From assembly GCA_002703645.1 (NCBI GenBank), contig NZUX01000033.1, positions 1,942 through 65,941 of the forward strand: 64,000 nucleotides of DNA, read 5' to 3'. Under the pieces are notes generated by a model that was given only the letters and a program-made list of their open reading frames with translations, was not told the DNA's origin and ran no database searches. Below are positions 2,811 through 58,374 of the stretch, piece by piece. This stretch comes from Fidelibacterota bacterium (lineage in GTDB: Bacteria > Fidelibacterota > Marinisomatia > SCGC-AAA003-L08 > D37C17). Positions within the stretch are counted from its first letter, which is position 1. Each line of letters begins with the position of its first letter. The translations under genes and the position numbers were made by a program.

Positions 2811-2830
2811 AATCCCCTCAAATTTTGAAT

Positions 2831-2930
2831 GCAGTCATCTCAGATAGTTCGTGCGGATGTAAGGAAGTGTGGATGAGATATTTTTCCAATAAAGGAGGTA
2901 AACTACCTGAGATAGTCTGCAATTTTTTTA
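2831..2930. other. candidate structured RNA element or leader (strand ambiguous)
   Basis: GCAG..ATCTCAG (2831-2843) is complementary to CTGAGAT..CTGC (2907-2920) and encloses about 60 nt. A second TGAGAT at 2874-2879 could compete for the same partner. A T7 run follows on the plus strand. On the minus strand the element lies in the 5' leader of the 2139..2810 gene. Confidence 0.25.
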
Positions 2931-2967
2931 TAAAAAATATTATCTGTAAAATTTTAATCATTATTTA

Positions 2968-3036
2968 TACACGTTTTGCACGTTTTAATTTAAATCAATA
3001 ATATTAGAAAAGCAAGAAAAACGTGAATAACGTGTA
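2968..3036. promoter_or_regulatory. 19-nt inverted repeat built from tandem CACGTTTT units (candidate operator or hairpin)
   Basis: TACACGTTTTGCACGTTTT (2968-2986) matches the reverse complement of AAAACGTGAATAACGTGTA (3018-3036) at 17 of 19 positions. The arms are separated by 31 nt. It lies upstream of the minus-strand membrane-protein gene. Confidence 0.4.
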
Positions 3037-3110
3037 AAAAAGAGGTGTTGCAGGGGCTTGCTAGACCACAAAGTTTAGAGGAAAAATGCTTTAGTTAAGA
3101 CGAAATAAAT

Positions 3111-3141
3111 GGAAAGAAAAACCCCACTAAAAGTGGGGTTT
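3111..3141 (-). terminator. rho-independent terminator downstream of tRNA-Sec
   Basis: On the minus strand, AAACCCCAC-UUUUA-GUGGGGUUU is followed by UUUUUCUUU, starting 10 nt after the tRNA 3' end. Confidence 0.75.
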
Positions 3142-3151
3142 CCTATCTAAT

Positions 3152-3246
3152 TGGCGGAAACGTGTGGGAGTCGAACCCACCAGACCCATTTCTGTGTCTC
3201 AGCGGCTTTGAAGGCCGAGGCATCCACCGGGATAACATCCGCTTCC
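3152..3246 (-). tRNA. selC: tRNA-Sec (anticodon UCA)
   Basis: The reverse complement reads GGAAGCGGATGTTATCCCGGTGGATGCCTCGGCCTTCAAAGCCGCTGAGACACAGAAATGGGTCTGGTGGGTTCGACTCCCACACGTTTCCGCCA (95 nt). Anticodon loop is CTTCAAA. T-arm is GTGGG-TTCGACT-CCCAC. D-loop is CGGT. It has a long variable arm, a discriminator G and an encoded CCA. The 5' GGAAG, D-loop, anticodon loop and T-loop match what I remember of E. coli selC. Confidence 0.85.
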
Positions 3247-3286
3247 TTAAATCTTAACTAATTTTAAAAAGAATATATGTACAGCG

Positions 3287-13065: not shown

Positions 13066-14256
13066 TTAAATAGTTTTTCTAATAAGAATAAAATTTCCAA
13101 ATCCATTTTGATCAAGAAAAGTGAATTTTAACCCAGAGGGATATTCCCAAATCTCATAAACACCATTAGATTGATTTGAATATCTCTCAGCTGTTTCAGG
13201 AGGTCCATAAATAATATATACTCTTCCTCGATCAGACCTCCAACCTTTACTCATATCAAAAAATTTCAAATTTACAAACTTTACTCTATCAGAAAATTCC
13301 ATCAATAATTCATTTTCAGGAGTTTTAGGGTCAGGATCTCTATCTATCCAATAATTTTCAACAAACTTAAACTGATCAATTAGTTCCATTTTTTTTAATG
13401 CCTTAATATCTGATACTGGTAATATATATCTCATAACAGCAACAATTTCCGTAGAGTCATTAGTCCAAAAAATATTATTTTCATCTTCTAAGTATAAATA
13501 TTTCATTATTGAATAGTCTGAAGTTGACAAAGTTAAATCAAAATAATTATAATATTGATTTGGAATATCAAATTCAATAGAATAAAAACCATTTTGATCC
13601 ATAGATAGATTAGAGAATGTAGAAATATATTCTTGATTAGAATCATTCAGTTTTATTGATAAATCATTAATTTTTTTATCACTATTAAAATATTGAAAAG
13701 ATAATAAAATATTATTACTATCAATTTTTAATTCATTATTAATTTCTTTTACAACAGAAAACTCATTAGAACTATTTCTAATATATAAAGATAAATCTCC
13801 AAAACCATTTATTGCTGATAAATCAATCTTTTTATCTGATTTAAATATATTGCTATTATCTAAATCTTGGATATTGACTCTTATATGATATTCACCCTTT
13901 GGAAGGTTTATAAATTCTTTAAATGTTAAAAACTTAGTCGATGACCTTGTATCCTCATAATATCTTTGAACAATTTCATCTTTCCAAGAATCTTGGATGA
14001 CAATTGAGTCATTATTCATATCATAAATTTGGATAGTAGTAAGAATTGAAGCTTTAAAAACATTATCCTGTTTAACAAAAACAAAATGATTATTACTTAC
14101 CGAATGATTGATTGAAACCTCAAATATATCTTCTTTATAATTATATATCTGATTGGTAGATAAATTAATCAGCATATCACTATTCTTATTTCTATTTTTA
14201 TCTTTTGTAGAACAAGAGCAAAGCATTAATAATATAATAAATATTTTAATTAGCAT
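13066..14256 (-). CDS. GWxTD-domain lipoprotein
   Basis: C-terminal GWRSDRGRVYIIYGPP. The likely start is MLIKIFIILLMLCSC (lipobox) at 14256 rather than the track start at 14322. Confidence 0.75.
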   Translation of the reverse strand: MLIKIFIILLMLCSCSTKDKNRNKNSDMLINLSTNQIYNYKEDIFEVSINHSVSNNHFVFVKQDNVFKASILTTIQIYDMNNDSIVIQDSWKDEIVQRYYEDTRSSTKFLTFKEFINLPKGEYHIRVNIQDLDNSNIFKSDKKIDLSAINGFGDLSLYIRNSSNEFSVVKEINNELKIDSNNILLSFQYFNSDKKINDLSIKLNDSNQEYISTFSNLSMDQNGFYSIEFDIPNQYYNYFDLTLSTSDYSIMKYLYLEDENNIFWTNDSTEIVAVMRYILPVSDIKALKKMELIDQFKFVENYWIDRDPDPKTPENELLMEFSDRVKFVNLKFFDMSKGWRSDRGRVYIIYGPPETAERYSNQSNGVYEIWEYPSGLKFTFLDQNGFGNFILIRKTI

Positions 14257-15877
14257 GATATTTTTCCCAGTTAAATAGCGCGACACCCTTATTTGATATA
14301 AACCAAACCCAATCATTATCACAATCTATGTTAAATATTTCATTACCCTGTATACCATCATCTTGATCATAGTACCAAGATTCGCCATTATTCATATTTA
14401 TAAGCCGAGCCCTATCAACTAAATTAATCCAAATATAATTATTACATAATTCAAAATTTCTAATATTATTATCAAATACTAATTCTTTAAAATTATTTGA
14501 TGATAATTTCAATCTTGAGATTGTTCTATTTAAACAATATAATGACTCATTATCAATTTCTATTTGATAGCAGACTCTATCTGATACAAATAAATTATTA
14601 TTAAATGACAAATCTATTTTTTTAATTCCTCTATTTGTTGCCACAAATAAATTATTATCATACACTTCCATATCATAATTTTTTTGATTATTAAGATTGT
14701 AATCATTAGGAATAACTCTAAATGGATTAATATTTATTTCATTGATTCCATTTAAAGTCATAGCTAAAATCTTACCATCATGCTCAATTACTTCCCATAC
14801 AGCATCATCACCTAACCCATCAGAAGAATCTAATATATCCCATGAACTACGAAAATTTTTTAAATCTTTTTTTAATAATCCAAAAGATGTGGCAACAAAC
14901 AAGTGATTACCTAACCGTTTCACATCATTAACATCTGTACTCTTAATATTTATAGACTCATTTATATTAAATCTTTCCCAATCTCCATTATTTTCATCCC
15001 AAGAAATTAAAAAAACATCATCATCTCCATTGAAATAATTAAAAAACTGATTATCAAAATGTCCTGTACGTTTAAATTCACTATCAAAAAACCACCACTT
15101 TTTTTCTTTATCCAAGTAAGCATCAGATATAACACCTTTTTTCAATATGGGTTGTATTGGATCCAACTTCTTTGAATTTCCCCATGAGTAAAACAAAAAA
15201 CCTCTATCCGTACCAACCCAATTATTATTATCACTATCAGTATAAAATACTGTAGGAATTATCTGATTGCCATTCTTATCAAAAAAAACATTATAATCTA
15301 TATGATGATTATTAATATTATTAACTCTATATCCTATTGACCAATTAGAGTCTGGTATATAAAATTTAGATAAATCAATATTCTGCCCATCAAACCCATA
15401 CATTGAACTACCCCAAACAATATTATTTTTTTCATCAATAGCATCGTTAATATCTACAAATTTACCTGAAAATGGATTCAATGGCACAATATATTGATAA
15501 TTTCTAATCCATATAAAACCAGAAGAGCTTCCAATATCATCAATAATAGTTATGCCCTTACCTATCAAATCGGAATTTAATAAATGATGATAAGAAAAAG
15601 ATGATAAAGGCTTAAAGCTAACACCTTGATCATGAACAACCCATATATGATCAGTATTATCATCATAATAAATATGCTTAATAATATCTGATGGAAGTCC
15701 TCTCATAAGTTCAATGTCATAAACTAACTCACCTGTTATTTTATCGTACGTAAAAATTCCATTATTAGCACCAATAATAACATTATAATTATCATCAGTT
15801 ATTGCATGAATCTGACTGGGGTTCCTAAGAATATACCAATCACCTTCTTCATAAAAAAAGTTAGTGAAGGAATACAA
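14246..15877 (-). CDS. beta-propeller protein with Reg_prop-like repeats
   Basis: Recurrent blades: IWVVHDQGVSF, NWVGTDRGFLFY, LFVATSFGLLKK, LFVATNRGIKKID and WVWFISNKGVALF. The start codon is uncertain (TTG; see findings). Confidence 0.5.
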   Translation of the reverse strand: MYSFTNFFYEEGDWYILRNPSQIHAITDDNYNVIIGANNGIFTYDKITGELVYDIELMRGLPSDIIKHIYYDDNTDHIWVVHDQGVSFKPLSSFSYHHLLNSDLIGKGITIIDDIGSSSGFIWIRNYQYIVPLNPFSGKFVDINDAIDEKNNIVWGSSMYGFDGQNIDLSKFYIPDSNWSIGYRVNNINNHHIDYNVFFDKNGNQIIPTVFYTDSDNNNWVGTDRGFLFYSWGNSKKLDPIQPILKKGVISDAYLDKEKKWWFFDSEFKRTGHFDNQFFNYFNGDDDVFLISWDENNGDWERFNINESINIKSTDVNDVKRLGNHLFVATSFGLLKKDLKNFRSSWDILDSSDGLGDDAVWEVIEHDGKILAMTLNGINEININPFRVIPNDYNLNNQKNYDMEVYDNNLFVATNRGIKKIDLSFNNNLFVSDRVCYQIEIDNESLYCLNRTISRLKLSSNNFKELVFDNNIRNFELCNNYIWINLVDRARLINMNNGESWYYDQDDGIQGNEIFNIDCDNDWVWFISNKGVALFNWEKYHAN

Positions 15878-23315: not shown

Positions 23316-23435
23316 TAAACCTCATTTTTTAATATTTAAATTTAATAATTAATATTAATTTATACCAAATATTTTTAATATAAACTATATATTTATTTAA
23401 AATTATAAAGAAATAAGGAGTATGTCTTTAATATT

Positions 23436-23780
23436 ATGAAAACTACAGTTTACCATAACCCTAGATGAAGTAAGAGCAGGAATTCGGTTCGAATTCTAGA
23501 AGAAAAAAAAATTGATTACAAAATTATAGAATATCTAAAAAATCCTTTAAGTGTTAATGAATTAGAAAACATTCTTAACATTCTTAAACTAAAGCCAATT
23601 GATATTATTAGAAAAACGGAAGCAGATTATAAAGAAAATAAAATTAATTTAATCAAAAATGATAATGAACTCTTAATGGCAATAATAAAATTCCCTAAAA
23701 TACTTCAACGACCAATTATATTAAATGGGAACAAGGGAGTAATTGGTAGGCCCCCTGAAAATATTTTATCAATAATTTAA
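23436..23780 (+). CDS. ArsC/YfgD-family thiol reductase with an in-frame UGA (probable selenocysteine) at the catalytic Cys position
   Basis: Manual translation gives MKTTVYHNPR-U-SKSRNSVRILEEKKIDYKIIEYLKNP...FPKILQRPIILNGNKGVIGRPPENILSII (114 aa). I align it to the YHNPRCSKSR...RPIV...GRPPE..L pattern of the E. coli ArsC/YfgD family. The TGA at 23466-23468 replaces the Cys codon. The ORF is absent from the ORF track. Confidence 0.85.
23480..23496 (+). promoter_or_regulatory. bacterial SECIS-like hairpin
   Basis: GAATTCG-GTT-CGAATTC is a 7-bp perfect stem with a G/U-containing apical loop. It starts 11 nt after the UGA, which matches the bacterial SECIS spacing as I recall it from fdhF. Confidence 0.6.
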
Positions 23781-23787
23781 ATATTTA

Positions 23788-31515: not shown

Positions 31516-32799
31516 TTATTGCTCCTCAATTTTATATATTGATATTCCATTTTCTGAAGCGGTGTATATATTATTTCCATCTACTTTAACATCATAAACA
31601 TAATTATCATCACCACTATCTATATTTGTTAACAAATTCACTTCCAAAGATCCATCCCATTGATAAATAAGAACACCGTCATTACCCGCTGCAAGTGCTA
31701 AAAAACTATTACCAGCATCAATCGCATTAATCGAATATCCATCTGCAAATAATAAATTAGCCATAATACTACTATCTGAGTCAAGTAACGCCATGTAACA
31801 GCCTCTATCATTATCAAATCCAGCTAATACATAGTTATCTGTGATAAACAGACTTTCAGCTTCCCCACCTTGAACATTAAAATTGTCTTTAAAAGTAAAG
31901 GAGTTTTTAATTATTGTATAAACTCCATCACCATTAGTATCCTCAAACACCTCTGCGTCTTCTTCTGTCACCCATGTTCCACATGGTTCTACGCAATCAG
32001 CCTCATCTACAAATTCCCCACAAAGCCATGCCAACTCTGGATTAAGTCCATAACATCCAACTCCATCATAAACTCCATTATCATTAGAATCTGTAAATGG
32101 CTCAGCTATATAACGCTCATACTTATATATCTCAACACCTAAGCCAGCATCAGCGACGGCTACAATATTATTAAAATAAGATACCTTGGTTGCATCAATG
32201 CTAAAATGTAGAGCTGTATTACATGCTGGCTCTGTATCAGGCTCCCAAATTCCATTGCTATCATTAAAATATTCCCTGATCGCAACTGAAGTAGAATAGT
32301 TAGAACCTCCTGATGGAGCACCATCTGAATGCTTTTGTAACGTGAATAATAAAGTTGTATCTGGAATATCATTATTTAAAGCTAAATCTCTTATAACAAA
32401 ACTATTTCCACAAGTTGTAGTAGTTCTATATAAAACTCCTGGGTTATTTAAATCCTCACGAAGAAAAGGATCATAGTCATCATGAATAAATACCATGCCA
32501 TGCATATTATCTGAGATTAAGACACCTGTTGCAGCATCTCCTTCATCACCTGATACCAGATCTTCTACATGCTGTTCTAGCTCTAGAGATGCATTTCCAT
32601 TATCATCTTCTAATATATTATATCTTAAATATCCATTATGATTTGCAGCAGCTACCAACATATTATCATCTATATCAATGCCTGTACATTTATCAATCGT
32701 TTCATAGTGAACTTCACTAATTATATAATTTTCCTGTACAAAAACATTTGGCTCTTTACAAGAAAACAGAAATAATAACATAAAAATATATACTTTCAT
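31516..32799 (-). CDS. lipoprotein, LVIVD-like beta-propeller
   Basis: Lipobox LFSC. Repeats: NIVAVADAGLGVEIYKY, FLALAAGNDGVLIYQWDG and NNIYTASENGISIYKIE. Confidence 0.45.
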   Translation of the reverse strand: MKVYIFMLLFLFSCKEPNVFVQENYIISEVHYETIDKCTGIDIDDNMLVAAANHNGYLRYNILEDDNGNASLELEQHVEDLVSGDEGDAATGVLISDNMHGMVFIHDDYDPFLREDLNNPGVLYRTTTTCGNSFVIRDLALNNDIPDTTLLFTLQKHSDGAPSGGSNYSTSVAIREYFNDSNGIWEPDTEPACNTALHFSIDATKVSYFNNIVAVADAGLGVEIYKYERYIAEPFTDSNDNGVYDGVGCYGLNPELAWLCGEFVDEADCVEPCGTWVTEEDAEVFEDTNGDGVYTIIKNSFTFKDNFNVQGGEAESLFITDNYVLAGFDNDRGCYMALLDSDSSIMANLLFADGYSINAIDAGNSFLALAAGNDGVLIYQWDGSLEVNLLTNIDSGDDNYVYDVKVDGNNIYTASENGISIYKIEEQ

Positions 32800-32809: not shown

Positions 32810-33907
32810 CTAAAAAAGAAAATCTAAGTGTGTATTAAAAACAATTTTATATATAAACTCTAATTTTTCAAAACTTTTTAAATCTGAAACAGTAGTTGGA
32901 TACGGAGTATCTGTACCTCCAAAATAATTAACCCTAAAATCAGAAAAAACATTTCTATCCCTATGCTTTATTTTAAATTGATGCGATAAATTATCATTAA
33001 TTTTTTTCTCTAACCAAAAAGATAAATTATACTCGATATGCTTTCGACCTGCATGGATAGGGTCATCCAATGATTCTTCATTGTAAGCTCTATTTTTAAT
33101 AACTGATGATACTCCAAATCTATCTATTAGAGATATTGATTTAATTCTTTTATTAGCACTATAACCAAATGTGTATTCTTTATACGACCTATCATAAAGA
33201 GATGATTCATAACCTGAATTATAAGATATATTATCTCCTATTGCATAAGATACCCAGAATGAATTATTCATCCTAAAATAGCTAGAGTTTAATCTAAAAT
33301 GCCATTGATCAATTACGGTATCATACTCAGTAAAATCGATATTATAGTAAAGATTTGTTCTAGTATACTTCACTCTTGCCCATATTTTTTTTACTATTGG
33401 ATTTGAGAACGAAATTATAAATGATTCAGAAGAGAAAATACATTCAGAATAGTTTTTATCATTTGAGTCATGATCAATATAGTTTCTAAGATAATATTCA
33501 GGTAAATATCTATGAGAAAATTTCAACCATCTGTATGATCCTAACTTAACTCCAAATTCTGTGTAAATAATATTGTAAGATTTTTCAGTTGCTCCAAAAT
33601 AATGATTCCTTAGCAATGAAAAATTAAATTGAGTCTTATTTTTTTTTATCAAATGAGGACTATAGCTAATACTTATTTTGGGAACCATATAGCTAGCATC
33701 AAATGTATCTGAATTAATAATAGGAATAGTATTTTGAAATTGAAATTCTTTTTCAAAATCTGATAACCTAAATATATTACTATCATAGCCAGTAGACAAA
33801 GAGTAGGTTGTATATATAGGAACATTAAGTCTCTCTAAAAAAGCTTGAGACATTAGAGATGAAGTCATAGCAAAAAGTAGAAAAACGATAACTCTACTAT
33901 TTGTCAT
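32810..33907 (-). CDS. putative outer-membrane beta-barrel protein
   Basis: Signal peptide, alternating amphipathic beta-strand pattern rich in Y/S/N/F, and a C-terminal ...HLDFLF with terminal Phe. Confidence 0.5.
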   Translation of the reverse strand: MTNSRVIVFLLFAMTSSLMSQAFLERLNVPIYTTYSLSTGYDSNIFRLSDFEKEFQFQNTIPIINSDTFDASYMVPKISISYSPHLIKKNKTQFNFSLLRNHYFGATEKSYNIIYTEFGVKLGSYRWLKFSHRYLPEYYLRNYIDHDSNDKNYSECIFSSESFIISFSNPIVKKIWARVKYTRTNLYYNIDFTEYDTVIDQWHFRLNSSYFRMNNSFWVSYAIGDNISYNSGYESSLYDRSYKEYTFGYSANKRIKSISLIDRFGVSSVIKNRAYNEESLDDPIHAGRKHIEYNLSFWLEKKINDNLSHQFKIKHRDRNVFSDFRVNYFGGTDTPYPTTVSDLKSFEKLEFIYKIVFNTHLDFLF

Positions 33908-34790
33908 ACTGCTTTACCTTTAAATAAATTGGCTTATTCTTATTAGATAAATCACCTCTTCTTACTGTATAGTAATGTTTGCCTTTAGGAACATTGATCC
34001 AGCACGTCTTCCACTTACCCACTTTTTCTTTTGATGTTTTTAAGTAACTTATATTAGATGCATCTGAGTTAAAGGAGTAAGTTCCAATATCTAAACCATC
34101 TTCTTTTACAAATAAAGTGTAATTATTTTCATCTAAGTTTAAAGATGGATTACCTAAACGAGTAAAAATTCTTATTGATGTCGGACCCTCTACTTCAAAT
34201 TGATATTCATTTTTCTTTGATGAAAGTTTATACCAATAGCTCGATTTACTTTCTCCTTTAGCCCTTTTTGTTTCAATAATATATTTTGATTCTTTATTAA
34301 TTGAGTTTAATCCTATAGAAGAATATTTATTTCTATTGATTTTACTGATCTGAGATCTCACAATTATATTTTTATTACCAGTAATTTTAATATTTTGAAA
34401 TTCACTAGCAAGCATATCTACAAACCAGATACCAGGTTGTGTAGGAACTCTTCCATATTTACCTTTTATATTCAGCTTACTTTTTGGCTTTATATAACGA
34501 AGAGTTCTAGATGACTTATCATTTAATTTTAATTTGATTTTAAAATCTTCTTTACCCTTTGATTCAGAGGGTGTAACAGCTCTTATGAAAAATTTTATTC
34601 TAACTGAATCACTATTAGAATACCCCTCACCCAAATCATTAAATTGAAGTCCATCTTTTTTAAAATGATAGTATATATATTCTTTCTTATCTTTATTAAG
34701 TATAATGGATGATCCATTAGTAGGAATTAATGTTTTTGAAAATATAAATGATAAGCAAAATAGAATTAAAATTTTATTCAACTGGTTCAT
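33897..34790 (-). CDS. secreted, strongly basic beta-rich protein of unknown function
   Basis: Signal peptide and a K-rich sequence. It overlaps both neighbouring genes. No known motif. Confidence 0.4.
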   Translation of the reverse strand: MNQLNKILILFCLSFIFSKTLIPTNGSSIILNKDKKEYIYYHFKKDGLQFNDLGEGYSNSDSVRIKFFIRAVTPSESKGKEDFKIKLKLNDKSSRTLRYIKPKSKLNIKGKYGRVPTQPGIWFVDMLASEFQNIKITGNKNIIVRSQISKINRNKYSSIGLNSINKESKYIIETKRAKGESKSSYWYKLSSKKNEYQFEVEGPTSIRIFTRLGNPSLNLDENNYTLFVKEDGLDIGTYSFNSDASNISYLKTSKEKVGKWKTCWINVPKGKHYYTVRRGDLSNKNKPIYLKVKQYDK

Positions 34791-35982
34791 TATGTATCTC
34801 TTCCATTTTTTTATTTACTTGTGATATGCTACTTAAAACGACCCATACTAAGGTTGATAGCGATATAATCAAACATAACCAAACTACCAATCTATGATGA
34901 GGAGTCCTTATGCCAAATAATTCACCAAATCCAACCTCCATACTCATTGAATTATAACTATCATCAGAATATGGCAGGTCATACCAATCACACAAGTTAT
35001 TAATATTTTTAATGTTAATCACAGGGATATTTAATTCTTCTGAAAACTTTTGTATTACAGGAATAATGTCATTTATATCCTTATCTATTAAATCCTCATC
35101 AAAAGCATTGTTAATTGCTTCTTCCATATCAGAATCTTTTTCAAGGTTTAAACCGGGTAAAAATAATCTCATGGTTGTAGAATCTCCTAAGCTTGCGGCA
35201 GATCCTCCTATACTTACATAAGCTTTATAATTTTTACTTTTTGCTAAATAAAGCTCCATTCTTTTTTCTATTGATTCAGATAGAGAAGATGATTCAATAA
35301 TACTATAATTATTATCCGCAATTCTCATTTTTAACAACTCTTTAATATCACTAGACAATTCATCTGCTCTATCCTGATCTCCCCCTAATGAAAAAGCTGA
35401 GCTTCTATATTCAAAGATATTACCATATAGATGATTCTCGATATCTGCCCATGTCATATTAATCTGATTAGCTCCCCATGAAGATGAACCAATTGAGCTA
35501 ATAATAACAGGATATATATTTACGGCTTTACAAGCAGCCAATAAAGCAATATTAGCCCCTGGAAATGAACCTGTATAACTTACAGCAATAGTATCTACTT
35601 TATTAGGATTCAGCAAAGATGAGTCGATCTCTGAAAATAATTGAATAAATAATGCTGAAAAATTAGGGTTTGTAACTGCTACCTTTGAATATAATGAGCC
35701 TTCTTTTGTAGTTATAGATGATGAAGTAGAATCAACACCTATAATTCCAGAATCAAATCTATCATACGATAAAGATTGGGTTGAAAGACTAGGAATCTTA
35801 TCATTAGAAAAGTTTTTTGTTGACCGCAATGCATCTTTCATGATTTGAGTAGATTTAATTTTAGCATCATAATGCTCAAATGCCTTGAACTCGTAGGATA
35901 TATAGGATATGTAAACTAATAGTAAATTAATAACTGCAACAAAAACTAAGACGCTTGTTCTTTTTATATATGGTCTAAACAT
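34774..35982 (-). CDS. poly-gamma-glutamate system partner protein (membrane-anchored at both ends)
   Basis: N- and C-terminal TM helices. It sits immediately after pgsC with an 8-nt overlap. As I recall, a 'poly-gamma-glutamate system protein' family replaces CapA next to PgsBC in some lineages. The assignment rests on context and size only. Confidence 0.45.
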   Translation of the reverse strand: MFRPYIKRTSVLVFVAVINLLLVYISYISYEFKAFEHYDAKIKSTQIMKDALRSTKNFSNDKIPSLSTQSLSYDRFDSGIIGVDSTSSSITTKEGSLYSKVAVTNPNFSALFIQLFSEIDSSLLNPNKVDTIAVSYTGSFPGANIALLAACKAVNIYPVIISSIGSSSWGANQINMTWADIENHLYGNIFEYRSSAFSLGGDQDRADELSSDIKELLKMRIADNNYSIIESSSLSESIEKRMELYLAKSKNYKAYVSIGGSAASLGDSTTMRLFLPGLNLEKDSDMEEAINNAFDEDLIDKDINDIIPVIQKFSEELNIPVINIKNINNLCDWYDLPYSDDSYNSMSMEVGFGELFGIRTPHHRLVVWLCLIISLSTLVWVVLSSISQVNKKMEEIHNEPVE

Positions 35983-36508
35983 ATTTACCTAAAACCATTA
36001 ATATTAAATTTATCAAACTTGAAATAATTAGAATTGTAGAAATTGTAGACAAGACTCCCTGTCTATCCATCCAACTAGATATAAGCCCTGGAATTAACCA
36101 GCCAATATAAATCATTTCTCCAGAATAACTTGCCAAAAAACTATTAAAATCATATAAACTAGTACTCATATAAACAATGAGATTAGATAGAAAAAAATCC
36201 CCACCAGGCTTATATGTTATAAAATATACAGGGATATCTCTAATAAAAGATCCTAGAGTAAAAGATAGAAGCAAACAAAATACTAATCTTCTTTTTCCAT
36301 ATATAATAATAAATCTTGATAGAAAATTGAGGATAAGCAAGGTTAGAAGACTAATACAAAAAGTGAATATCACAGCATAAGGGTTATGAAGTGAGAGAGC
36401 GATATAACCAGGAACAATAAGTCCTCCCGCTGTAACACCCACTGATTCAGTAAGTACTAAGCTAATAATCATACCCAACCCTATTGCTATAGCAGGATGA
36501 TCAAGCAT
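35975..36508 (-). CDS. pgsC: poly-gamma-glutamate biosynthesis protein PgsC/CapC
   Basis: TAGGLIVPGYIAL, IIYGKRRLVF and LIPGLISSWMDRQG parallel B. subtilis PgsC (PAGLVVPGYL, ILYGRRKF, IVPGLIAN). Confidence 0.9.
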   Translation of the reverse strand: MLDHPAIAIGLGMIISLVLTESVGVTAGGLIVPGYIALSLHNPYAVIFTFCISLLTLLILNFLSRFIIIYGKRRLVFCLLLSFTLGSFIRDIPVYFITYKPGGDFFLSNLIVYMSTSLYDFNSFLASYSGEMIYIGWLIPGLISSWMDRQGVLSTISTILIISSLINLILMVLGKYV

Positions 36509-37673
36509 TTTTAAACTCCCTTAATCGTTTTATAAAGCTTTCACCCCATCCAACTATATTACCAATACCAATTATAGCATAATCATCTAATTCTGACATT
36601 TTATTAATAATCAATCCCATATCATCATCATTTAAAAATAAGGAGAATTTAAGATTTTTATTATAATTAACTCTATCTGTAATATCACTATCTAAATTAT
36701 CACCTCTAATAATTAAGTAATCTGGAGCTATATCTTTAAACACCAGATCAAGAAGCTGTTGTGTTCTAAGCTGTCTATCAGTTCGAGTATTAAGGAAAAT
36801 AGCAATTTTTTTCTTGCCATTATAATGCTCTTTAATAATATCTAAAGTTCTAAGAGTTGAATTAGGATCATTTGCTGCAAAAGCATTAACAAAGTCAATA
36901 GATGATTTATTGATATTCAATTTAAGAATAGATAATGCCCCAGGGTCAGGGTTTGTATTTTTCATACCATTAATTGCATCTTTTTTGCTAACACCAACAC
37001 TCTGACAGACACCTAGAGCTAAAGCTATATTATCTGGATGTTCAATAAAGGGGAAACCTTCTAAATATTTTTTATTCATATACTTTGAATCACAAATATT
37101 AATTTCACTATTATTACTAATAGCTTTATTAATAATTGGAGCTACGGAATCTGTTTCTGAAGTGAATACTTTTTCATTTATCGGAATTGTATTAGATAAA
37201 GATTTTGCAATATGAGTATGACTATATCCCATTTCTTCAAGATGATCTGCTCTCACATTGGTAATCACACAATAATTTGATTGTAAAATTTTATGTTCTG
37301 ACACCCATTGATATTGAGGTTGGACTGCCATACATTCCATGACAATTGCCTTAGGCTTATATTTTGAAAATCGAGCGATCATTCTAATTTGTTCTCCAAT
37401 AGAGGCAGGCCTAAATCTTTGAATGATATGATCATCGCCTAAACTATCGATAAATCTCGGAGAAGATCCTGTGGTTTTAGCTACCGTTTGAATTCCTCCA
37501 CCTCTTAAACCAGCTGCTATTAATCGAGTAACACTAGACTTTCCTCTGGTACCATTAACATGAATTCTAATAGGGATTTTTCTGATTGCATTATTGTGTA
37601 ATTTAGATTCAACTAAACCTAGTAGAATTAATGTTAATAAAATAACAAGGAGTGAAAGAGTAACTACTGGCAA
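36501..37673 (-). CDS. pgsB: poly-gamma-glutamate synthase PgsB/CapB (Mur-ligase-like)
   Basis: N-terminal TM. IRIHVNGTRGKSSVTRL, IVMECMAVQPQYQ, NVRADHLEEMG and FAANDPNSTL parallel B. subtilis PgsB. Confidence 0.9.
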   Translation of the reverse strand: MPVVTLSLLVILLTLILLGLVESKLHNNAIRKIPIRIHVNGTRGKSSVTRLIAAGLRGGGIQTVAKTTGSSPRFIDSLGDDHIIQRFRPASIGEQIRMIARFSKYKPKAIVMECMAVQPQYQWVSEHKILQSNYCVITNVRADHLEEMGYSHTHIAKSLSNTIPINEKVFTSETDSVAPIINKAISNNSEINICDSKYMNKKYLEGFPFIEHPDNIALALGVCQSVGVSKKDAINGMKNTNPDPGALSILKLNINKSSIDFVNAFAANDPNSTLRTLDIIKEHYNGKKKIAIFLNTRTDRQLRTQQLLDLVFKDIAPDYLIIRGDNLDSDITDRVNYNKNLKFSLFLNDDDMGLIINKMSELDDYAIIGIGNIVGWGESFIKRLREFKNA

Positions 37674-41809: not shown

Positions 41810-42868
41810 TTGGCTATATCAATTAAAGAGCTTTTAGGCTACGCACTAGATAGCGGAGCCTCAGATCTTCATCTTAGCGTAGGGAACATCCCTATGCTAA
41901 GAATACACGGAGAGATGAAGCAGATTAAATCCCCCCCACTAGATTTGAAGTCTATGGAAAAAATTAGAGATGAAGTCTTAAACTCAAATCAGCAAAAAGC
42001 CTTTAAAGATATGCTTGAAATTGACTTTTCTGCAGAATTAAAAGGAAAGGGAAGATTTAGAGTTAATTTTTTTAATCAAATAAATGGTTTATCTGCAGTA
42101 TTTAGAACGATTTCTAATGTTATTTTAAATTCTGAGGAATTAGGTGTACCTCCAATACTTAATTCTCTAGCAATGAAAAATCGAGGCCTTATTCTCCTTA
42201 CTGGTCCCACTGGAAGTGGTAAGTCTACAACTCTAGCTGCGATGGTTGACCATATAAATGAAAATAAAAATTGTCATATCATAACAATTGAAGACCCAGT
42301 AGAATATTACCATACATCAAAAAATTGTCTTATAAATCAAAGAGAGGTAGGTCATTCAACTCATTCATTTTCTAATGCGTTAAGATCTTCCTTAAGAGAA
42401 GATCCAGATGTTATCCTAGTTGGAGAAATGCGCGATCTTGAAACAATCCAATTAGCTTTAACTGCAGCTGAAACAGGACATCTTGTATTATCAACTTTAC
42501 ATACTTCAAGTGCTGTAAAAACGGTAGATAGGATTATCGATGTTTTTCCATCAGGACAAAAATCTCAAATTAGATCAATGTTATCAGAAAGTCTTGTGGC
42601 AATTGTTGCGCAAAAATTACTTCAAAATAAGGATGGCGATGGACGTGTTCCAGCAAGTGAAATAATGATAGCAAACCCTGCGGTAAGAAACCTTATAAGA
42701 GAAGATAAAATATATCAAATTCCTTCTCTAATACAATCTGGAAGTAAAGAAGGTATGCAAACATTAGACCAAGACTTACAAAGACTTCTAACTCAAGGTT
42801 TAATTAATAGAGAAGATGCCCTCAGTATCGCTGAAGACCCTGAATTATTCCAAAAAGGTATTTTTTAG
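41810..42868 (+). CDS. pilT: type IV pilus retraction ATPase PilT
   Basis: ASDLHLSVG..P..RIHGE, Walker A GPTGSGKSTT, IITIEDPVEY, Walker B VILVGEMRD, and the AIRNLIRE-like motif AVRNLIRE. Confidence 0.92.
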   Translation: MAISIKELLGYALDSGASDLHLSVGNIPMLRIHGEMKQIKSPPLDLKSMEKIRDEVLNSNQQKAFKDMLEIDFSAELKGKGRFRVNFFNQINGLSAVFRTISNVILNSEELGVPPILNSLAMKNRGLILLTGPTGSGKSTTLAAMVDHINENKNCHIITIEDPVEYYHTSKNCLINQREVGHSTHSFSNALRSSLREDPDVILVGEMRDLETIQLALTAAETGHLVLSTLHTSSAVKTVDRIIDVFPSGQKSQIRSMLSESLVAIVAQKLLQNKDGDGRVPASEIMIANPAVRNLIREDKIYQIPSLIQSGSKEGMQTLDQDLQRLLTQGLINREDALSIAEDPELFQKGIF

Positions 42869-42872
42869 TTCA

Positions 42873-43304
42873 ATGAAAGCTAAGAGATTCTATAATGGCT
42901 TTACTATTGTAGAGCTGATGATAGGATTACTTTTTACAGTAATGGCCGGAGGTGCAATTATTGTAGGTACGGGTCATTACTATAAAACAATCAGTAACCT
43001 CAAGTTGAAAGAAGCTGCATATGAAAAATTAAAAGGGTATACTGAATATCAAAAAGGGAAAATTGCAGCAGGAGATATAAGGAATAATAGCTGTGAATCT
43101 GGTGAAGATTTATGTCTTGGTTCAATTGGAGAAGATGAAGAGTGTACATTCGAAGCTAATGATTTATGCTTTTACATATCTGAATCGATAGGATCTCAAA
43201 ATTCAAAAGCAAAAAGATATGAATTATTAACAACTATAAAATGGAATAATATAAATGAAGAAGAAAAAGAAATGAGTTTTTATGCAATTCAAATCGTTTA
43301 TTAA
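42873..43304 (+). CDS. prepilin-type N-terminal cleavage/methylation domain protein (minor pilin)
   Basis: MKAKRFYNG/FTIVELMIGLLF. The start was moved to the ATG at 42873. Confidence 0.75.
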   Translation: MKAKRFYNGFTIVELMIGLLFTVMAGGAIIVGTGHYYKTISNLKLKEAAYEKLKGYTEYQKGKIAAGDIRNNSCESGEDLCLGSIGEDEECTFEANDLCFYISESIGSQNSKAKRYELLTTIKWNNINEEEKEMSFYAIQIVY

Positions 43305-43878
43305 AAAAAACATTCTTCATAAATCTTTAAGTGGTTTTAGCTTAATTGAGTTTATTGTTTCATTATCAATTATGACAATTGGCTTTCTAGGAATTATGAC
43401 TCTTTATATAGATGTCGTAAAAAATTACACTCAAACTCAATTTATAGAGGAAACTCGTTTTGCACTTTCCTCGCAAATAGAAGCAATTAGTGAAGATATT
43501 AGAAACGCCAATAAAGTAGAGGTTATACCTGGATTTAGAACTAGAATTAAAATTGAAGATGATATAGTATACTCCTGTTCTAATAGTGAGGGACTCTTAA
43601 AAGATGGAAGTCAAACTGGTTTTTATGGAAGTACTATTAAACAATTATTTGAAAATAACGATGTCTATACATTAGAAGTTAAATGCGATGAATTCGATTG
43701 CAAAAAAAGCTTATCATCCATGGGTAATGAAAAAAAACTTCGTGATAATTTTTATACCCTTACCGCAGAATTCGAATTAACATCACAAATAAATCCAGAC
43801 TTCTTAAAAACATATAAATTTAAACGGGATATATTTACACAAAATATGTTCTCTATACCTAGTGATGATGAAAATTAA
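43282..43878 (+). CDS. prepilin-type minor pilin
   Basis: SLSG/FSLIEFIVSLSIMTIGFLGI. Confidence 0.7.
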   Translation: MQFKSFIKKNILHKSLSGFSLIEFIVSLSIMTIGFLGIMTLYIDVVKNYTQTQFIEETRFALSSQIEAISEDIRNANKVEVIPGFRTRIKIEDDIVYSCSNSEGLLKDGSQTGFYGSTIKQLFENNDVYTLEVKCDEFDCKKSLSSMGNEKKLRDNFYTLTAEFELTSQINPDFLKTYKFKRDIFTQNMFSIPSDDEN

Positions 43879-46222
43879 TAACAAAAAGTACTCAAGCAAG
43901 GGACTCATACTCCCTACTACTTTAGTATTAACTTTTTCAAGTTTTTGGATTATTTCAGGCTACTTGTGGTGGCTTGATGATAAGATTAATGAATTAGAAT
44001 ATAAAATTGCAGTGACTAAAGCAACATATAATGCAGAAAGTGGAATTGCAGATTTTGTCTATCCATTTTTAATTAATACTGGATTTACAAAAGATACTTT
44101 ATACAAACCAGAAGATGCTGGAGGAATTATTAATCCATATTTAGATAGTGAAATTAGCTTTCCTGGATCAGAAGTTTTTATGGGAAGTTATGATGCCGAT
44201 GCGTCTAATTGGGGATATGATGAGATTACAAGCGATTCTATAAGATATAATTTTATAAAATCAAGTGCCATAAGTTCTGGAAAAATACGAGGTGTTGCTT
44301 ATTGGGGGCCTCTTAACTCAGATGGTAGCTGCTGTAAATCAAAGGTTACAAGAACTTCAGAGTTATCTGTATCCTCAGATGGGTGGGGACGATACATGTA
44401 TTATACGGCATCTGAAAGTGCTGGCGGAGGACCCTGGACTTTTGATCCACCATACTTAACTGATGCAGACCGAAGATCAGTATGCTTTTGGGGACCAGAT
44501 GTAATGCAAGGAGTTGTACAATCAAATTCTTTACTTACATTCTGTAGCAGCGGAGGGTGTCCTGATTTCTCTGATGCAAGTTGGTACTTTTCTCCAGGCT
44601 TTGATGGACCTGAGGATTGGGGGCAGTGCTCTAATGAATACTATACTCTTTTTCAAACACAAGATTCTGAGGAAATAGATACTCTAACAACATGTCAATA
44701 TCAATTTCCTCCTAATATGGCTTCAAGCTATGATGATGCAAATATAGTGATTGAGGCAGACTACATGCTTAGAGCAAGCAATGGAACAGGGCTGAAAGAT
44801 ACTTTGATTATGACTGATATAGAGTTTTTCCCGAATGGTGGAGTTCAAGTTTATCAGTGGTGGTATCTAATGCCTCCACATTTGAAAAAATATAAAGGAA
44901 ATCAGGCAACAAATAATCCATCAGATTTTATTGAACTAACTGACTATGATCAACAACACCCAAAGCCTCATCATATTGATGGTTTTGATGAATTGTTTGA
45001 AGAAATTACTGGAAATAGTTGGACTGAATATAATTATTGGGATGATCAAGCTGATAATTTTTCATTTTTAAACCAAATTTGTAATACTACAAATTTTTCA
45101 AATCAAGCATTCCCTATGAATAACATTACATGCAAGCATTATCTAGATTCGTTAAGAGCATATCATGGAAAAGATGTGAGCACAAGTAATGGGTTCGAAT
45201 CATATATGAATCCATCTATATCTGGTCACCATGGAATTGTTGGACAGCATTTTGATTTTCATAATGGGATTGATCAAAATGGAAATGGTCAAATAGAAGA
45301 TTCATTGCTTGTTTATGATGAGTATTTTAGTTATAATGTGCCTTCAGTAATTTATGTAAAAGGAGGCCCTGTGAGAGTTAGAGGCACATATAAAGGTCAA
45401 TGGACTGTTCTAACAGACTCAGAAACAGAATATCAAAGACATGCTTGGAGAGATACTCTAGAGCAAAGCCCTCCTATTGATAAAGTATTAAATAACATAT
45501 ATATAGTAGATGACTTAATTAACGCTGATTCCTTTAATGGTAATATGGGAGGACTATTACAACCAGATGAAGAAACTTGTCGTGGAGGAAGCGATAATGT
45601 TATGGGGCTTTTATCTGGTGCCAATATAGTTGTTGCGAGTACAAGGGAAAACGGACTAGGGGATGGTGCCGGATCGTGTTCTACAGTGGCTAGTTGCAAT
45701 CAAAATATTTCATCTGTAAAAATTAATGCTGCTATGATGGCGCTTGATGAATCATTTGTAGTTCAATATTGGCAAAATTCAACAGCCAATCAAGCTGCTA
45801 CTAACTATAATCCTTTAAATTATGAATCAAGCTGGTGGAATGGGGTAGTTGGTGAAACTAGTCCTACTAATGATGACTTCTACGAAGGTGCAAGTCAACC
45901 AGGGGATGCGCAAGACCCCCCAGGAGCAGATGGAAGAGGTCGAATAAAATCTAATGATAACAATATTTTTCCTTCCCAAACTCAAGATAGGCGGGGTGTT
46001 ATATATTTATGGGGTGGTGTTGTCCAGAAAAATCGTGGATATGTTAGAAGATCAGCAAATAGTCCTTACGGAAATGCAGAAGTAGGCTATGTAACTAAAG
46101 ATTATAACTTTGATGATAACGTCCGATGTAATGAGCCTCCAGGGTGGCCTCCTCTTCAATGCCTAGGTGACTCAACTGAGGTAGATGTTACAATAATAGG
46201 CTCTATTACTAAAAAGAATTAA
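43862..46222 (+). CDS. large PilX-N-like pilus-associated protein (candidate tip or adhesin subunit)
   Basis: The N-terminal hydrophobic segment GLILPTTLVLTFSSFWIISGYLWW resembles PilX/GspK-type minor pilins that lack the G/F site. It is followed by about 740 aa of Cys-, Gly- and Trp-containing globular sequence. Confidence 0.5.
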   Translation: MMMKINNKKYSSKGLILPTTLVLTFSSFWIISGYLWWLDDKINELEYKIAVTKATYNAESGIADFVYPFLINTGFTKDTLYKPEDAGGIINPYLDSEISFPGSEVFMGSYDADASNWGYDEITSDSIRYNFIKSSAISSGKIRGVAYWGPLNSDGSCCKSKVTRTSELSVSSDGWGRYMYYTASESAGGGPWTFDPPYLTDADRRSVCFWGPDVMQGVVQSNSLLTFCSSGGCPDFSDASWYFSPGFDGPEDWGQCSNEYYTLFQTQDSEEIDTLTTCQYQFPPNMASSYDDANIVIEADYMLRASNGTGLKDTLIMTDIEFFPNGGVQVYQWWYLMPPHLKKYKGNQATNNPSDFIELTDYDQQHPKPHHIDGFDELFEEITGNSWTEYNYWDDQADNFSFLNQICNTTNFSNQAFPMNNITCKHYLDSLRAYHGKDVSTSNGFESYMNPSISGHHGIVGQHFDFHNGIDQNGNGQIEDSLLVYDEYFSYNVPSVIYVKGGPVRVRGTYKGQWTVLTDSETEYQRHAWRDTLEQSPPIDKVLNNIYIVDDLINADSFNGNMGGLLQPDEETCRGGSDNVMGLLSGANIVVASTRENGLGDGAGSCSTVASCNQNISSVKINAAMMALDESFVVQYWQNSTANQAATNYNPLNYESSWWNGVVGETSPTNDDFYEGASQPGDAQDPPGADGRGRIKSNDNNIFPSQTQDRRGVIYLWGGVVQKNRGYVRRSANSPYGNAEVGYVTKDYNFDDNVRCNEPPGWPPLQCLGDSTEVDVTIIGSITKKN

Positions 46223-46232
46223 GGAAATAATA

Positions 46233-47282
46233 ATGTCGATAAGTTTAGATATAGGAACAAATGAAGTTAAATTAATTGAACTTGAAAGAGTTAATGATGA
46301 TGCTGCTGTAATTAGATTTTTTTCTAAGCCTACTATGAGTGATATGGATTCTTTTGATCCTGAAAAATTAGAAAAAGCTAATTGGGTGGCATGCATAAAA
46401 GAGCTCCTTGAAGAGATAAAGTTAAATCCCAAAAAAATAAAAACTATTATTACTGCTATATCAGGGAAAAATTTATCTATCAAAGAAATTACCACTTTAG
46501 AAATGAAAGAAGAGGAATTGCTGCAATCCCTAGAGTTTGAAGCAAAAAAACATATTCCTCTTGATGGAACAGAAGCTGTTATGGACTATCATATAAAAGG
46601 TAGTAATAATAGTGAGATTGATAAAATAAATGTGATATTAGTTGCTACTACTAAAAATATAATTAAGCAATTTGACTCAATCGTTAGAGAGTCAGGATTT
46701 AAAAATTCAATTTTTGATGCTGAGCCTATTGCTCTTGTAAACTGTATGGCGCATAACTATGGGAAAAGCGAAGAAGGTATAGATGTAATTCTTGATATTG
46801 GTTCTAATAGTACAACTTTAGTTGTATCGAGTGATGAAAATACATTTTTCACAAGAGAAATAGATATAGCAGGTTTTCATATCATCAAAGAAATAATGAA
46901 AAAATATAATACAAACTACCTAGATGCAGAAAATATTTTAAAAGAAAATGGTATAAACGCACTAGGATCTACAGAGGAAGAAGAAGATACCTTTAGTTTG
47001 CAAGTAGCTGAAAAAACAATTATATCAAGTTTAATTGATGAGGTAAGAAAATCACTTAGATATTATGTTAAATCAAATAACGGAAATGCAAACTTTAAAA
47101 GGTTATTCATATGTGGTGGGTATGCTCAAATGGATGGGCTAAAAGACCAATTGAAAGATGAGCTTAGAATAGATGTAGAAATTTTAAACCCATTCAATAA
47201 AATAGAAAGTGATATAAAAATTGACAACCCGACAAAATATTGTGTTGCTGTTGGATTAGCTCTAAGAGGACTTTTACAGTGA
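46233..47282 (+). CDS. pilM: type IV pilus assembly protein PilM (actin-like ATPase fold)
   Basis: ISLDIGTNEVKLIEL, ILDIGSNSTTLVV and LFICGGYAQMDGL. Confidence 0.85.
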   Translation: MSISLDIGTNEVKLIELERVNDDAAVIRFFSKPTMSDMDSFDPEKLEKANWVACIKELLEEIKLNPKKIKTIITAISGKNLSIKEITTLEMKEEELLQSLEFEAKKHIPLDGTEAVMDYHIKGSNNSEIDKINVILVATTKNIIKQFDSIVRESGFKNSIFDAEPIALVNCMAHNYGKSEEGIDVILDIGSNSTTLVVSSDENTFFTREIDIAGFHIIKEIMKKYNTNYLDAENILKENGINALGSTEEEEDTFSLQVAEKTIISSLIDEVRKSLRYYVKSNNGNANFKRLFICGGYAQMDGLKDQLKDELRIDVEILNPFNKIESDIKIDNPTKYCVAVGLALRGLLQ

Positions 47283-48493
47283 AATCTGAAAATTTTATAT
47301 TAATAAATTTAAATCAAAATATTAGTAGAGCACGTAAGGTTGCTCAAAAAGAGCAAAGAGATAAATGGATTATATTTGGACTAATCTGCCTTTCTTTTAT
47401 AGGCTTAACTGCTTGGTTTTTTCAAATTAACAATAATTTCAACAAACTTATTCAAGCCAGAGAAGGTACTATTGAAAATATTAAATCTACAACTGCAAAA
47501 CTAAAAAAAGATGCTAAGATAAATTTATCAAAAGGAGATATCATATCGTCTTATGACTTAGGGAAAAGACACATTCCATGGTCTAGAAAATTAATTCAAT
47601 TATCTGAAATGACTCCTTATAATATGTGTATTACAAATTTAGTTTATGATACAAAATTCTTATATATATCAGCTATTTCTAAGATTGAAGATGAGAACCA
47701 AAAAGAGCAGCAAATATTAAATGATTTCATGAGTCTTATAAAGAGCAATGAAGATTTTTATAAAGAATTTGATAAAATTAAAATTAAAAAATCAACAAAA
47801 GTAGAAAGAGATAGTCAATCATATCTATCATTTGAAATCTCTGCCAAATTAAAAAAGAAATTAAAGAATAGAATGGATGAAATTCCTGTTGGGTTAATAG
47901 ATGATTTAAATAATATTGATAAAGAAGAGAGGAAAAGTAAACCTAAAACTGAGAGTAAACAAAAGAAGAAAGAAGAAGAAAAAAAACCTAAATATTCTGA
48001 TGATAGTATTAGACTAGCAAAAGCAATCAATATTACTAATGGAAACGACCCCAGTGGTTCAAAAGAAGTGAAGCAATTTCAACAAGAATTAAATATCTAT
48101 TCTAGCGATGATATACAATATGGTTACTGGGATTCAAAAACAATTTTAGTATATAATGATGTTCTTGAAATAAAAGCAGAAACAAGCTGGGAAAAAGAAT
48201 ATAAAAATATTAATAAGATGTTAGCAGGTGTGGAAGAAAAATCAAATAAAAATCAAAATTCTAAAGCTGAAAAAAATAATACTCGTGATAAAAACGGATA
48301 TGATAAGCTAACAATTAAAATTGCCTATGAAATAGCAGGGCAGATAGGTGCAGGGGCTCAAATTCCGGACTTAGATCTTATAAAAAGGTTTCAAGAACTA
48401 ACTTATATTGCTACAGAAAATGATTCTTGGTATGGAATCTTTAATAATGAAACAATAGAAAAGCTTGGGGAAGTAATGAGGACACAAGAATGA
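47279..48493 (+). CDS. pilN: PilN-like protein with a long C-terminal extension (K/E-rich linker plus two PG-binding-like repeats)
   Basis: The probable GTG start at 47279 forms a GTGA overlap with the pilM stop. INLNQ...KWIIFGLICLSFIGLTAWFF is a PilN-type N-terminus with TM helix. The protein is about twice the usual PilN length. Confidence 0.65.
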   Translation: MKSENFILINLNQNISRARKVAQKEQRDKWIIFGLICLSFIGLTAWFFQINNNFNKLIQAREGTIENIKSTTAKLKKDAKINLSKGDIISSYDLGKRHIPWSRKLIQLSEMTPYNMCITNLVYDTKFLYISAISKIEDENQKEQQILNDFMSLIKSNEDFYKEFDKIKIKKSTKVERDSQSYLSFEISAKLKKKLKNRMDEIPVGLIDDLNNIDKEERKSKPKTESKQKKKEEEKKPKYSDDSIRLAKAINITNGNDPSGSKEVKQFQQELNIYSSDDIQYGYWDSKTILVYNDVLEIKAETSWEKEYKNINKMLAGVEEKSNKNQNSKAEKNNTRDKNGYDKLTIKIAYEIAGQIGAGAQIPDLDLIKRFQELTYIATENDSWYGIFNNETIEKLGEVMRTQE

Positions 48494-49047
48494 AAAGAAA
48501 TATAATACTTCTATCTCTAACTATTATTTTTATTATATCATCTTTTTTACTAAGGACTATAATGTTTTCTGATAAACCCGAGCAAATTGTTGATTTAGAG
48601 GGAATACAAAAATCAGCAAATGAAAAATATATTACAGCTCAAATATTATCTCAAAGTTTAGATAATGTTTATAGATTATTTGAAGTCAATCTTGCAGCAA
48701 GTAAAAATGATAAGCTTAATGAAGAAGCCTCAGTTGATTTTATCAATACATTAACAGATATACTCTTTGAATTAAAAATTGATGTAATTGAAATGAAGCC
48801 TATGGATAAATATAGAAGTGGAAAATATACATATATTCCATATAGACTAAAACTTTCTTGTGATTTTGAGAAGTTTGGGAAATTCGTATCTGAACTTGAA
48901 CGTAATGAAAGATTAATTGCAATTGGAGAGTTTGAATATAGTAATTCTCCTGAAAATGTCAGGCGCAGCTCTGCATTAACTGAACTACCTGATGCTCTAA
49001 TTGAAATGGAAATAGCAACAATAACCTTAAATAAATCTAAAAAATGA
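48490..49047 (+). CDS. pilO: PilO-like pilus assembly protein
   Basis: N-terminal TM, a coiled segment, and YIPYRLKLSCDFEKFGKFVSELERNERLIAIGEFEY, which is a typical PilO core. Confidence 0.6.
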   Translation: MKRNIILLSLTIIFIISSFLLRTIMFSDKPEQIVDLEGIQKSANEKYITAQILSQSLDNVYRLFEVNLAASKNDKLNEEASVDFINTLTDILFELKIDVIEMKPMDKYRSGKYTYIPYRLKLSCDFEKFGKFVSELERNERLIAIGEFEYSNSPENVRRSSALTELPDALIEMEIATITLNKSKK

Positions 49048-49526
49048 ACAAAAGAGAAAACTTACTTTGGCAGATTATCTTAATAATTGCTTCCTTTGCA
49101 ATTATTTATAATGGATATGTACTCTATAATATGAATACTGAAATGATATCATTATGGGAAAAATATGAAAAGGAAGACATCGGAACAGATAAAAAACTTC
49201 AAAATAAAGTTGAAAGACTAGAAAAAAGCCTTCAAGATAAAAAAGAATTTAAATTTAAAATGAGACAAAATCCATCTGATTTATCAGCAGTGATTAATTT
49301 TGATGGATTAAATTCTATGGGAATTTTTAGACACTTTAAACTACAAAGTATTTGGTACAGTAAAAGAAGAGGTAAATATATGGCTCAACTTGAAACAACT
49401 ACATCTTCTAACTATTACTCTGAAAAAGATACCTTAGCAGGTGGAACTATTTCAAAAATAACTGAAGAAGCAGTTATTTTTGAAAAGGATGGGGAAATAT
49501 TTAAATATGAACAAGGGGAAGATTAA
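49044..49526 (+). CDS. pilP: PilP-like pilus assembly protein
   Basis: N-terminal TM plus a small C-terminal beta domain (GKYMAQLE...LAGGTISKITEEAVIFEKDGEIF). It sits between pilO and pilQ. Confidence 0.45.
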   Translation: MNKRENLLWQIILIIASFAIIYNGYVLYNMNTEMISLWEKYEKEDIGTDKKLQNKVERLEKSLQDKKEFKFKMRQNPSDLSAVINFDGLNSMGIFRHFKLQSIWYSKRRGKYMAQLETTTSSNYYSEKDTLAGGTISKITEEAVIFEKDGEIFKYEQGED

Positions 49527-49529
49527 ATA

Positions 49530-51059: not shown

Positions 51060-51107
51060 TAATCATAAATACATTCTTCAATAATTAAAAGTAAGCTAAG
51101 GATTAAT

Positions 51108-55394: not shown

Positions 55395-55409
55395 AATAAA
55401 GGTATAAAG

Positions 55410-58372: not shown

Positions 58373-58374
58373 AT

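Follow-up and report, generated by a model that had tools for sequence, protein, structure and literature searches.

A probable selenocysteine-containing arsenate reductase-family gene, left unannotated, in a marine Marinimicrobia (SAR406) genome

A 64,000-nt stretch of DNA (hereafter the window, with positions numbered from its first letter; 30.6% G+C) from the genome of an uncultured marine Marinimicrobia (SAR406) carries what is very probably a functional gene for a selenocysteine (Sec)-containing, glutaredoxin-type ArsC. The gap 23316-23787 can with high confidence be said to hold a real gene, coding for a small enzyme of the arsenate reductase family with Sec at the position of the catalytic Cys. 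The features concerned are as follows:

23436-23780, forward strand: proposed Sec-ArsC coding sequence, 114 codons plus TAA, with the motif U11-S-K-S (UxxS)
23466-23468, forward strand: UGA, proposed Sec codon (codon 11), aligned with the catalytic Cys12 of R773 ArsC
23415-23420, forward strand: Shine-Dalgarno-like AAGGAG, 15 nt upstream of the ATG, from an upstream alignment of the window and eight relatives
23479-23497, forward strand: SECIS hairpin, with a stem at 23479-23485 / 23491-23497 and a 5-nt loop at 23486-23490, from RNAfold, RNAalifold and covariation
3152-3246, reverse strand: tRNA-Sec gene, anticodon UCA, from ARAGORN and Rfam (RF01852, 66.9 bits vs. a threshold of 47, E = 1.9e-11)

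The 472-nt stretch 23316-23787 contains no long open reading frame (ORF) and is one of only three such stretches of at least 200 nt in the window, a second one (2811-3286) containing the tRNA-Sec gene. The initial annotation had described, in a gap of about 470 nt, a 114-codon frame with one internal TGA, and this description holds upon translation: on the forward strand, 23436-23780 reads MKTTVYHNPR, then the TGA, then SKSRNSVRILEEKK...GVIGRPPENILSII and the final stop, the TGA at 23466-23468 being the single internal stop. Within the uncovered sequence of the window, this is the sole TGA-interrupted frame. As for its upstream region, the spacer CTT(T)AATATT, located 3' of AAGGAG, is kept in most of the close relatives when the window and eight of them are aligned, and AAGGAG itself is a putative ribosome-binding site. 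A mini-ORF of five codons (ATG TCT TTA ATA TTA TGA, 23422-23439) was also seen, whose stop codon overlaps the first codon of arsC as ATGA. It was rejected as a coupling device, its ATG being unconserved (ATA in the related locus L207), and its occurrence is probably due to chance.

Contigs with this locus originate from marine metagenomes, among them Tara Oceans, and two proteins of the window are identical to the NCBI records MAQ43726.1 and MAQ43714.1, which belong to a Candidatus Marinimicrobia (SAR406) MAG. The interval was left empty by gene callers on all six long contigs, in agreement with the earlier remark that ORF calling had missed the gene. On short ENA contigs, it is recorded either with Trp at the active site (P0001-P0036) or as fragments of 38 to 77 aa (P0033, P0084, P0087 and P0127). 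The Trp records presumably arose from a gene caller choosing, on short contigs, a model in which TGA is read as Trp.

Family profiles were searched with the translated protein, U being read as C. The Pfam ArsC profile (PF03960) gave 47.3 bits against a cut-off of 24 (E = 2.5e-12), and NCBIfam TIGR00014 (arsC), an equivalog model for "arsenate reductase (glutaredoxin)", was passed end to end with 119.7 bits against a curated cut-off of 106.05 (residues 4-114 on profile positions 2-114). The R773-type model NF007456 yielded 50.4 bits against a cut-off of 242, so that the protein was placed in the short chromosomal subgroup. The label ArsC/Spx/YfgD, under which the frame had first been described, thus keeps its ArsC part and loses YfgD, the YfgD-type model NF008107 giving 27.9 bits, below its cut-off of 121. 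As for Spx/MgsR, model TIGR01617 gave 48 bits, below its cut-off of 75.05. Spx/MgsR and YfgD share the ArsC/Spx superfamily fold with the window protein and have an N-terminal motif at the equivalent place, but both models score far below their cut-offs and Spx carries CxxC, whereas the window motif is UxxS.

Among solved structures, the best matches are two short chromosomal proteins, 3rdw (E = 4e-20) and 3f0i (E = 2e-18), followed by ArsC of the E. coli plasmid R773 (1i9d). The first two are structural-genomics entries of about 120 aa, deposited as "putative arsenate reductase" and "arsenate reductase", respectively, and belong to the same length class as the window protein; together with R773 ArsC (1i9d, 1j9b), they also share its fold family. 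Aligned to 1i9d, U11 coincides with Cys12, and R59, R92 and R105 with Arg60, Arg94 and Arg107, i.e. with what we take to be the arsenate-binding and catalytic set of R773 ArsC. That the TGA column is that of the catalytic Cys, as had been proposed, is thus seen both in the match to Cys12 of 1i9d and in the match to YHNPRC of 3rdw and 3f0i. The three Arg residues are invariant in all 29 homologues analysed. With the nucleophile position and the Arg triad in place, the profile and alignment data assign the predicted protein to the glutaredoxin-type ArsC family. It differs from R773 ArsC and from 3rdw and 3f0i by its predicted nucleophile, Sec instead of Cys, and its gene differs from those of R773 ArsC and the chromosomal homologues in lacking an ars operon context.

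By analogy with R773 ArsC, the U11 selenol would, in place of the Cys12 thiolate, attack an arsenate held by R59, R92 and R105, and the adduct would be resolved by glutathione/glutaredoxin or another thiol, arsenite then being released. Both the arsenate substrate and the thiol partner are deduced from the sequence and its relatives: no ars operon genes (arsR, arsB or acr3) flank the Sec-arsC gene in the window, so that it is homology which points to arsenate as the substrate. A genuine selenoprotein with another substrate, namely a general selenol redox protein of the ArsC/Spx superfamily whose target would be another oxyanion, a protein or a low-molecular-weight thiol, is a possibility that we consider unlikely but worth keeping in mind. 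It would agree with the missing ars context, with the structural-genomics origin of the closest solved relatives (3rdw and 3f0i), and with the position of the gene next to an AsnC-type regulator, which is found in relatives too. Against it stand the passing of the TIGR00014 equivalog cut-off, with the Spx and YfgD models far below theirs, and the conservation of the arsenate-binding Arg triad. In addition, arsenate enters marine cells via phosphate uptake, so that oligotrophic marine bacteria commonly carry an arsC gene standing on its own.

The distribution of the TGA among homologues was analysed at both the protein and the DNA level. A protein search retrieved 36 full-length clusters with 60 to 97% identity, all of which have "W" at column 11, in the motif HNPRWSKSR or HNPRWGKSR. 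Cys forms (HNPRCSKSR) were encountered only at 56% identity and below, and U11 is aligned with C in P0047, P0071, P0081 and P0085; the search for Sec/Cys homologue pairs suggested by the initial annotation thus had a positive outcome. In the DNA of the 12 loci fetched, which stem from eight W clusters (eight distinct proteins), codon 11 is TGA in every case, and the recorded proteins are not reproduced by translating that DNA, as would follow if TGA had been read as Trp in the source records. All 12 frames are intact apart from that TGA, so the further disruptions for which relatives had to be checked do not occur.

The pattern Y-H-N-P-R-TGA-x-K-S-R was found at a minimum of 120 loci on metagenome contigs. 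Among the 120 matches listed, 119 begin as ArsC frames, the other one (L130) being a chance match. These 119 ArsC-type matches come from many lineages and about 100 of them are full length, the remaining ones being either cut by contig ends or members of a clade with a shortened arsC at an integrase junction. When an alignment of mixed Sec and Cys forms was compared with genome contigs, only Cys-type ArsC appeared among the matches listed (38 to 55% identity); the lack of Sec relatives among these matches is partly explained by the breaking of tblastn alignments at the TGA. Concerning the locus of the window itself, it is present on six contigs, which differ in sample and assembler, five with an identical gene and one with a 3-nt difference. 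The recovery of an identical gene in five independent assemblies rules out a sequencing error as the origin of the TGA.

A comparison by codon position was carried out on seven gap-free members of the window clade. The numbers of differences at the first, second and third positions are 28, 32 and 78 for codons 1-10, and 590, 278 and 1026 for codons 12-114. Third-position changes predominate both upstream and downstream of the TGA, in a single frame, a pattern consistent with coding selection on either side of it. Taken with the UGA lying in the Cys column and its conservation among relatives, this conservation of the protein on both sides is what would be expected of a selenoprotein gene.

The same data bear on the idea that only a truncated product is made, from an internal Met start downstream of the TGA, codons 1-10 being left untranslated. 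Versions of 77 and 72 aa do exist in public catalogues (P0033, P0084 and P0087), but such a product would be devoid of the catalytic residue and of the first strand of the fold. Moreover, the peptide encoded by codons 1-10 (YHNPR) is conserved, nucleotide changes being mostly at third positions, and AAGGAG with its largely conserved spacer precedes the ATG at 23436 in most close relatives. This idea is hardly credible, and a full-length product with Sec at position 11 is preferred.

The initial annotation had also pointed to a perfect 7-bp hairpin with G/U in its apical loop, 11 nt after the TGA, and had read it as a bacterial SECIS. The sequence GAATTCG-GTT-CGAATTC is indeed present, starting at 23480, 11 nt past the TGA. 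RNAfold adds a G.U pair to it, giving 8 bp over 23479-23497 with a GUU loop and a dG of -7.3 kcal/mol. In the window, an extra G-C pair (23486/23490) closes this 3-nt loop; it is unpaired in 9 of the 15 relatives compared, and G23487 and U23488 of the loop are invariant. By itself, the hairpin is within the range of chance (z = -1.34, with 21 of 200 shuffles folding equally well). Since this single-sequence score is weak, the significance of the hairpin was drawn solely from the comparison with relatives. No SECIS family was matched by Rfam, either at the gathering threshold or at E <= 10 on 23400-23600; the Rfam SECIS models cover other lineages.

The covariation set of the window clade comprised 15 sequences, nine of which had been picked by protein similarity only. 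The helix formed by alignment columns 14-20 / 26-32, equivalent to 23479-23485 / 23491-23497, is kept in these sequences, and the RNAalifold consensus has the identical 7-bp stem and 5-nt loop. Pair 16/30 is A-U in ten sequences, G-C in five and unpaired in none, its exchange coupling a non-synonymous Asn/Asp codon change with a synonymous ATT/ATC change of Ile. Pair 15/31 is G-C in eight sequences and A-U in four. The covariation score was 0.260, vs. 0.143 in shuffles; none of 500 shuffles scored as high, and all slid registers scored lower.

In 55 more distant Sec-ArsC genes, an equivalent helix was found one nt out of register, with a CGUGNN loop. Its exchanges include G-C to U-A (34/21), A-U to G-C (32/17) and G-C to A-U (47/7). 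This set had been picked for having at least six of the seven pairs, and the percentage of paired positions in it is inflated accordingly. Loop positions G22 and U23 do not vary in any of the 15 window-clade or the 55 distant sequences. The SECIS reading is thereby strengthened, by the conserved stem and by compensatory changes at pairs 16/30 and 15/31 and in the 55 genes. At the protein level, the peptide encoded by the hairpin, SVRIL, is fixed in Sec forms and variable in Cys forms, a contrast of the kind that would result from an RNA constraint superimposed on the coding sequence.

These comparisons effectively refute the idea of a pseudogene, with a Cys codon (TGC or TGT) turned into TGA by mutation and with two EcoRI-like GAATTC sites forming the hairpin as a palindrome by chance. 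The shuffle result for the hairpin alone and the empty interval on long contigs could be quoted in its favour, but the TGA is kept down to about 60% identity and in more than 100 divergent metagenomic genes without further disruption, the codon-position pattern is one of purifying selection on either side of it, and the stem shows compensatory changes. A pseudogene is consequently very improbable, and the hairpin is best seen as the SECIS of a working gene.

In E. coli, the fdhF SECIS is a hairpin of the coding region with an apical G and U. The predicted SECIS of the window resembles it in lying within the coding region, in starting about 11 nt after the UGA and in its apical G/U, but it is much shorter (7 bp and a 5-nt loop) and has no bulged U.

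Across the Sec-ArsC family, the 45 to 50 nt following the TGA (metagenome loci L081-L200) display at least three hairpin layouts over one peptide region. The first one, that of the window clade, has a 7-bp stem and an NGUUN loop. The second one, found in the majority, has a 6-7-bp stem and a CGUGNN loop, with the register shifted by one nt. The third one, in a clade whose protein starts with MDGFTIYHNPRU, has either a helix that starts at +4 and is interrupted, or a second hairpin lying some 12 nt further downstream. The latter (GCUGUUG-CGUGA-CAACGGC) is a candidate SECIS, which this third clade may use. Tentatively, Sec-ArsC genes may thus carry several lineage-specific SECIS solutions on one conserved peptide, although we would not wager on it; if so, the family would offer a natural series for the study of SelB-SECIS co-evolution.

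The tRNA-Sec gene which had been reported in the same window was confirmed by both ARAGORN and Rfam (RF01852), about 20 kb from the arsC frame. It is solitary, its neighbours coding for a SPOR-domain protein and a TMEM164-like membrane protein, and not for selA or selB. For selA, selB and selD, 74 kb were covered, and none of the three was encountered, either among 20 window ORFs chosen by length (Pfam) or among the called genes of the 10 kb past the left end of the window.

Concerning the genetic code, TGA is the stop of 8 out of 45 long ORFs, including those of pilM, a radical-SAM enzyme and a SpoU methylase, and table-11 ORFs tile the window with three gaps left; TGA is therefore a normal stop in the window. 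An alternative code (4 or 25), with TGA standing for Trp or Gly and position 11 being Trp, would match the W at column 11 in the ENA-derived records of the 36 homologue clusters but is extremely unlikely, given these TGA stops and this tiling, the presence of tRNA-Sec, a column that is the catalytic Cys in all Cys-type homologues and where Trp would abolish catalysis, and a W that is best explained as a gene-caller artefact of short contigs.

Under the Sec reading, ribosomes would initiate at the ATG at 23436 and meet the UGA at 23466, for which the hairpin 10-11 nt downstream would serve as a bacterial SECIS. [quoted passage not shown] In this scheme, SelB binding and the actual insertion of Sec are what the frame, the SECIS structure and the tRNA gene together suggest.

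The statement, in the initial annotation, that ArsC-like selenoproteins had been inferred from marine metagenomes proved correct. An "arsenate reductase, UxxS" was described as a new selenoprotein family on the basis of 14 Sargasso Sea sequences, and its predicted SECIS was displayed (Zhang, Fomenko & Gladyshev 2005, PMC1088965), and 77 arsenate reductase UxxS sequences (pfam03960) were subsequently counted in 23 GOS samples (Zhang & Gladyshev 2008, PMC2398784). The family also appears in the list of a 2022 review (Zhang et al. 2022, PMC9312934). From the time of the Sargasso Sea and GOS surveys onwards, Sec-ArsC has counted among the commoner marine selenoprotein families.

Judged on its sequence, the window gene is of this already known kind, with every sequence-level trait of the UxxS family (ArsC 1): it belongs to PF03960 / COG1393, has the UxxS motif with Sec at the catalytic Cys position, comes from surface-ocean metagenomes, and has a SECIS with a small apical loop and a conserved G directly downstream of the UGA. 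Nothing substantive differs between the two. What is particular to the window copy is its assignment to a named lineage (SAR406), its location on a long contig with tRNA-Sec, and its absence from annotation. The literature on Marinimicrobia together with selenocysteine yielded nothing relevant.

As a worked example, the SAR406 contig brings together tRNA-Sec, the UGA and a SECIS supported by covariation. Its main value lies in exposing an annotation blind spot for Sec-arsC in public catalogues, where mis-called copies inflate the number of "hypothetical" gaps and lead to incorrect residues in protein databases. The gene is also a small data point for ocean biogeochemistry, namely that Marinimicrobia would spend selenium on an enzyme of the ArsC family, the role of which is presumably arsenate detoxification.

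The gene is surrounded by a divergent AsnC/Lrp regulator, a glutamine synthetase, a permease of the Na/sulfate-symporter family and secreted C25-peptidase/T9SS proteins, and the AsnC-ArsC arrangement recurs on related contigs. Elsewhere in the window, 41810-59118 and 35975-37673 hold a type IV pilus / type II secretion cluster, with two T2SSE ATPases, PilM, a secretin, T2SSF and a prepilin peptidase, plus a pair made up of CapC and a Mur-ligase-like protein, which points to the synthesis of poly-gamma-glutamate. For several large ORFs in the neighbourhood, Pfam gave no match (14246-15877, 31516-32799, 32810-33907, 33897-35982 and 47240-48493).

A last observation was made on metagenome loci outside the window, in another marine Sec-ArsC clade (MDGFTIYHNPRUGKSRQTLQLLRDNG...). 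About ten contigs retain just the first 80-85 nt or so of arsC, from the start through the UGA and the hairpin to ...CTGTTGCGTGACAAC, the loci of this set being L119 (1-3500), L141 (1-3427), L121, L122, L135, L166, L180, L190 and L194. Past CTGTTGCGTGACAAC, there is a switch to non-arsC sequence common to the ten or so contigs, several of which start at that point. No tRNA genes were found at these arsC junctions. Beyond the junction, the opposite strand codes for a tyrosine integrase of about 390 aa (Phage_int_SAM_5, 5.9e-6; Phage_integrase, 2.5e-5), followed by a Toprim/AAA_25 primase-helicase. These sequences appear to belong to an integrative element whose attachment site would be the UGA- and SECIS-bearing 5' end of Sec-arsC.
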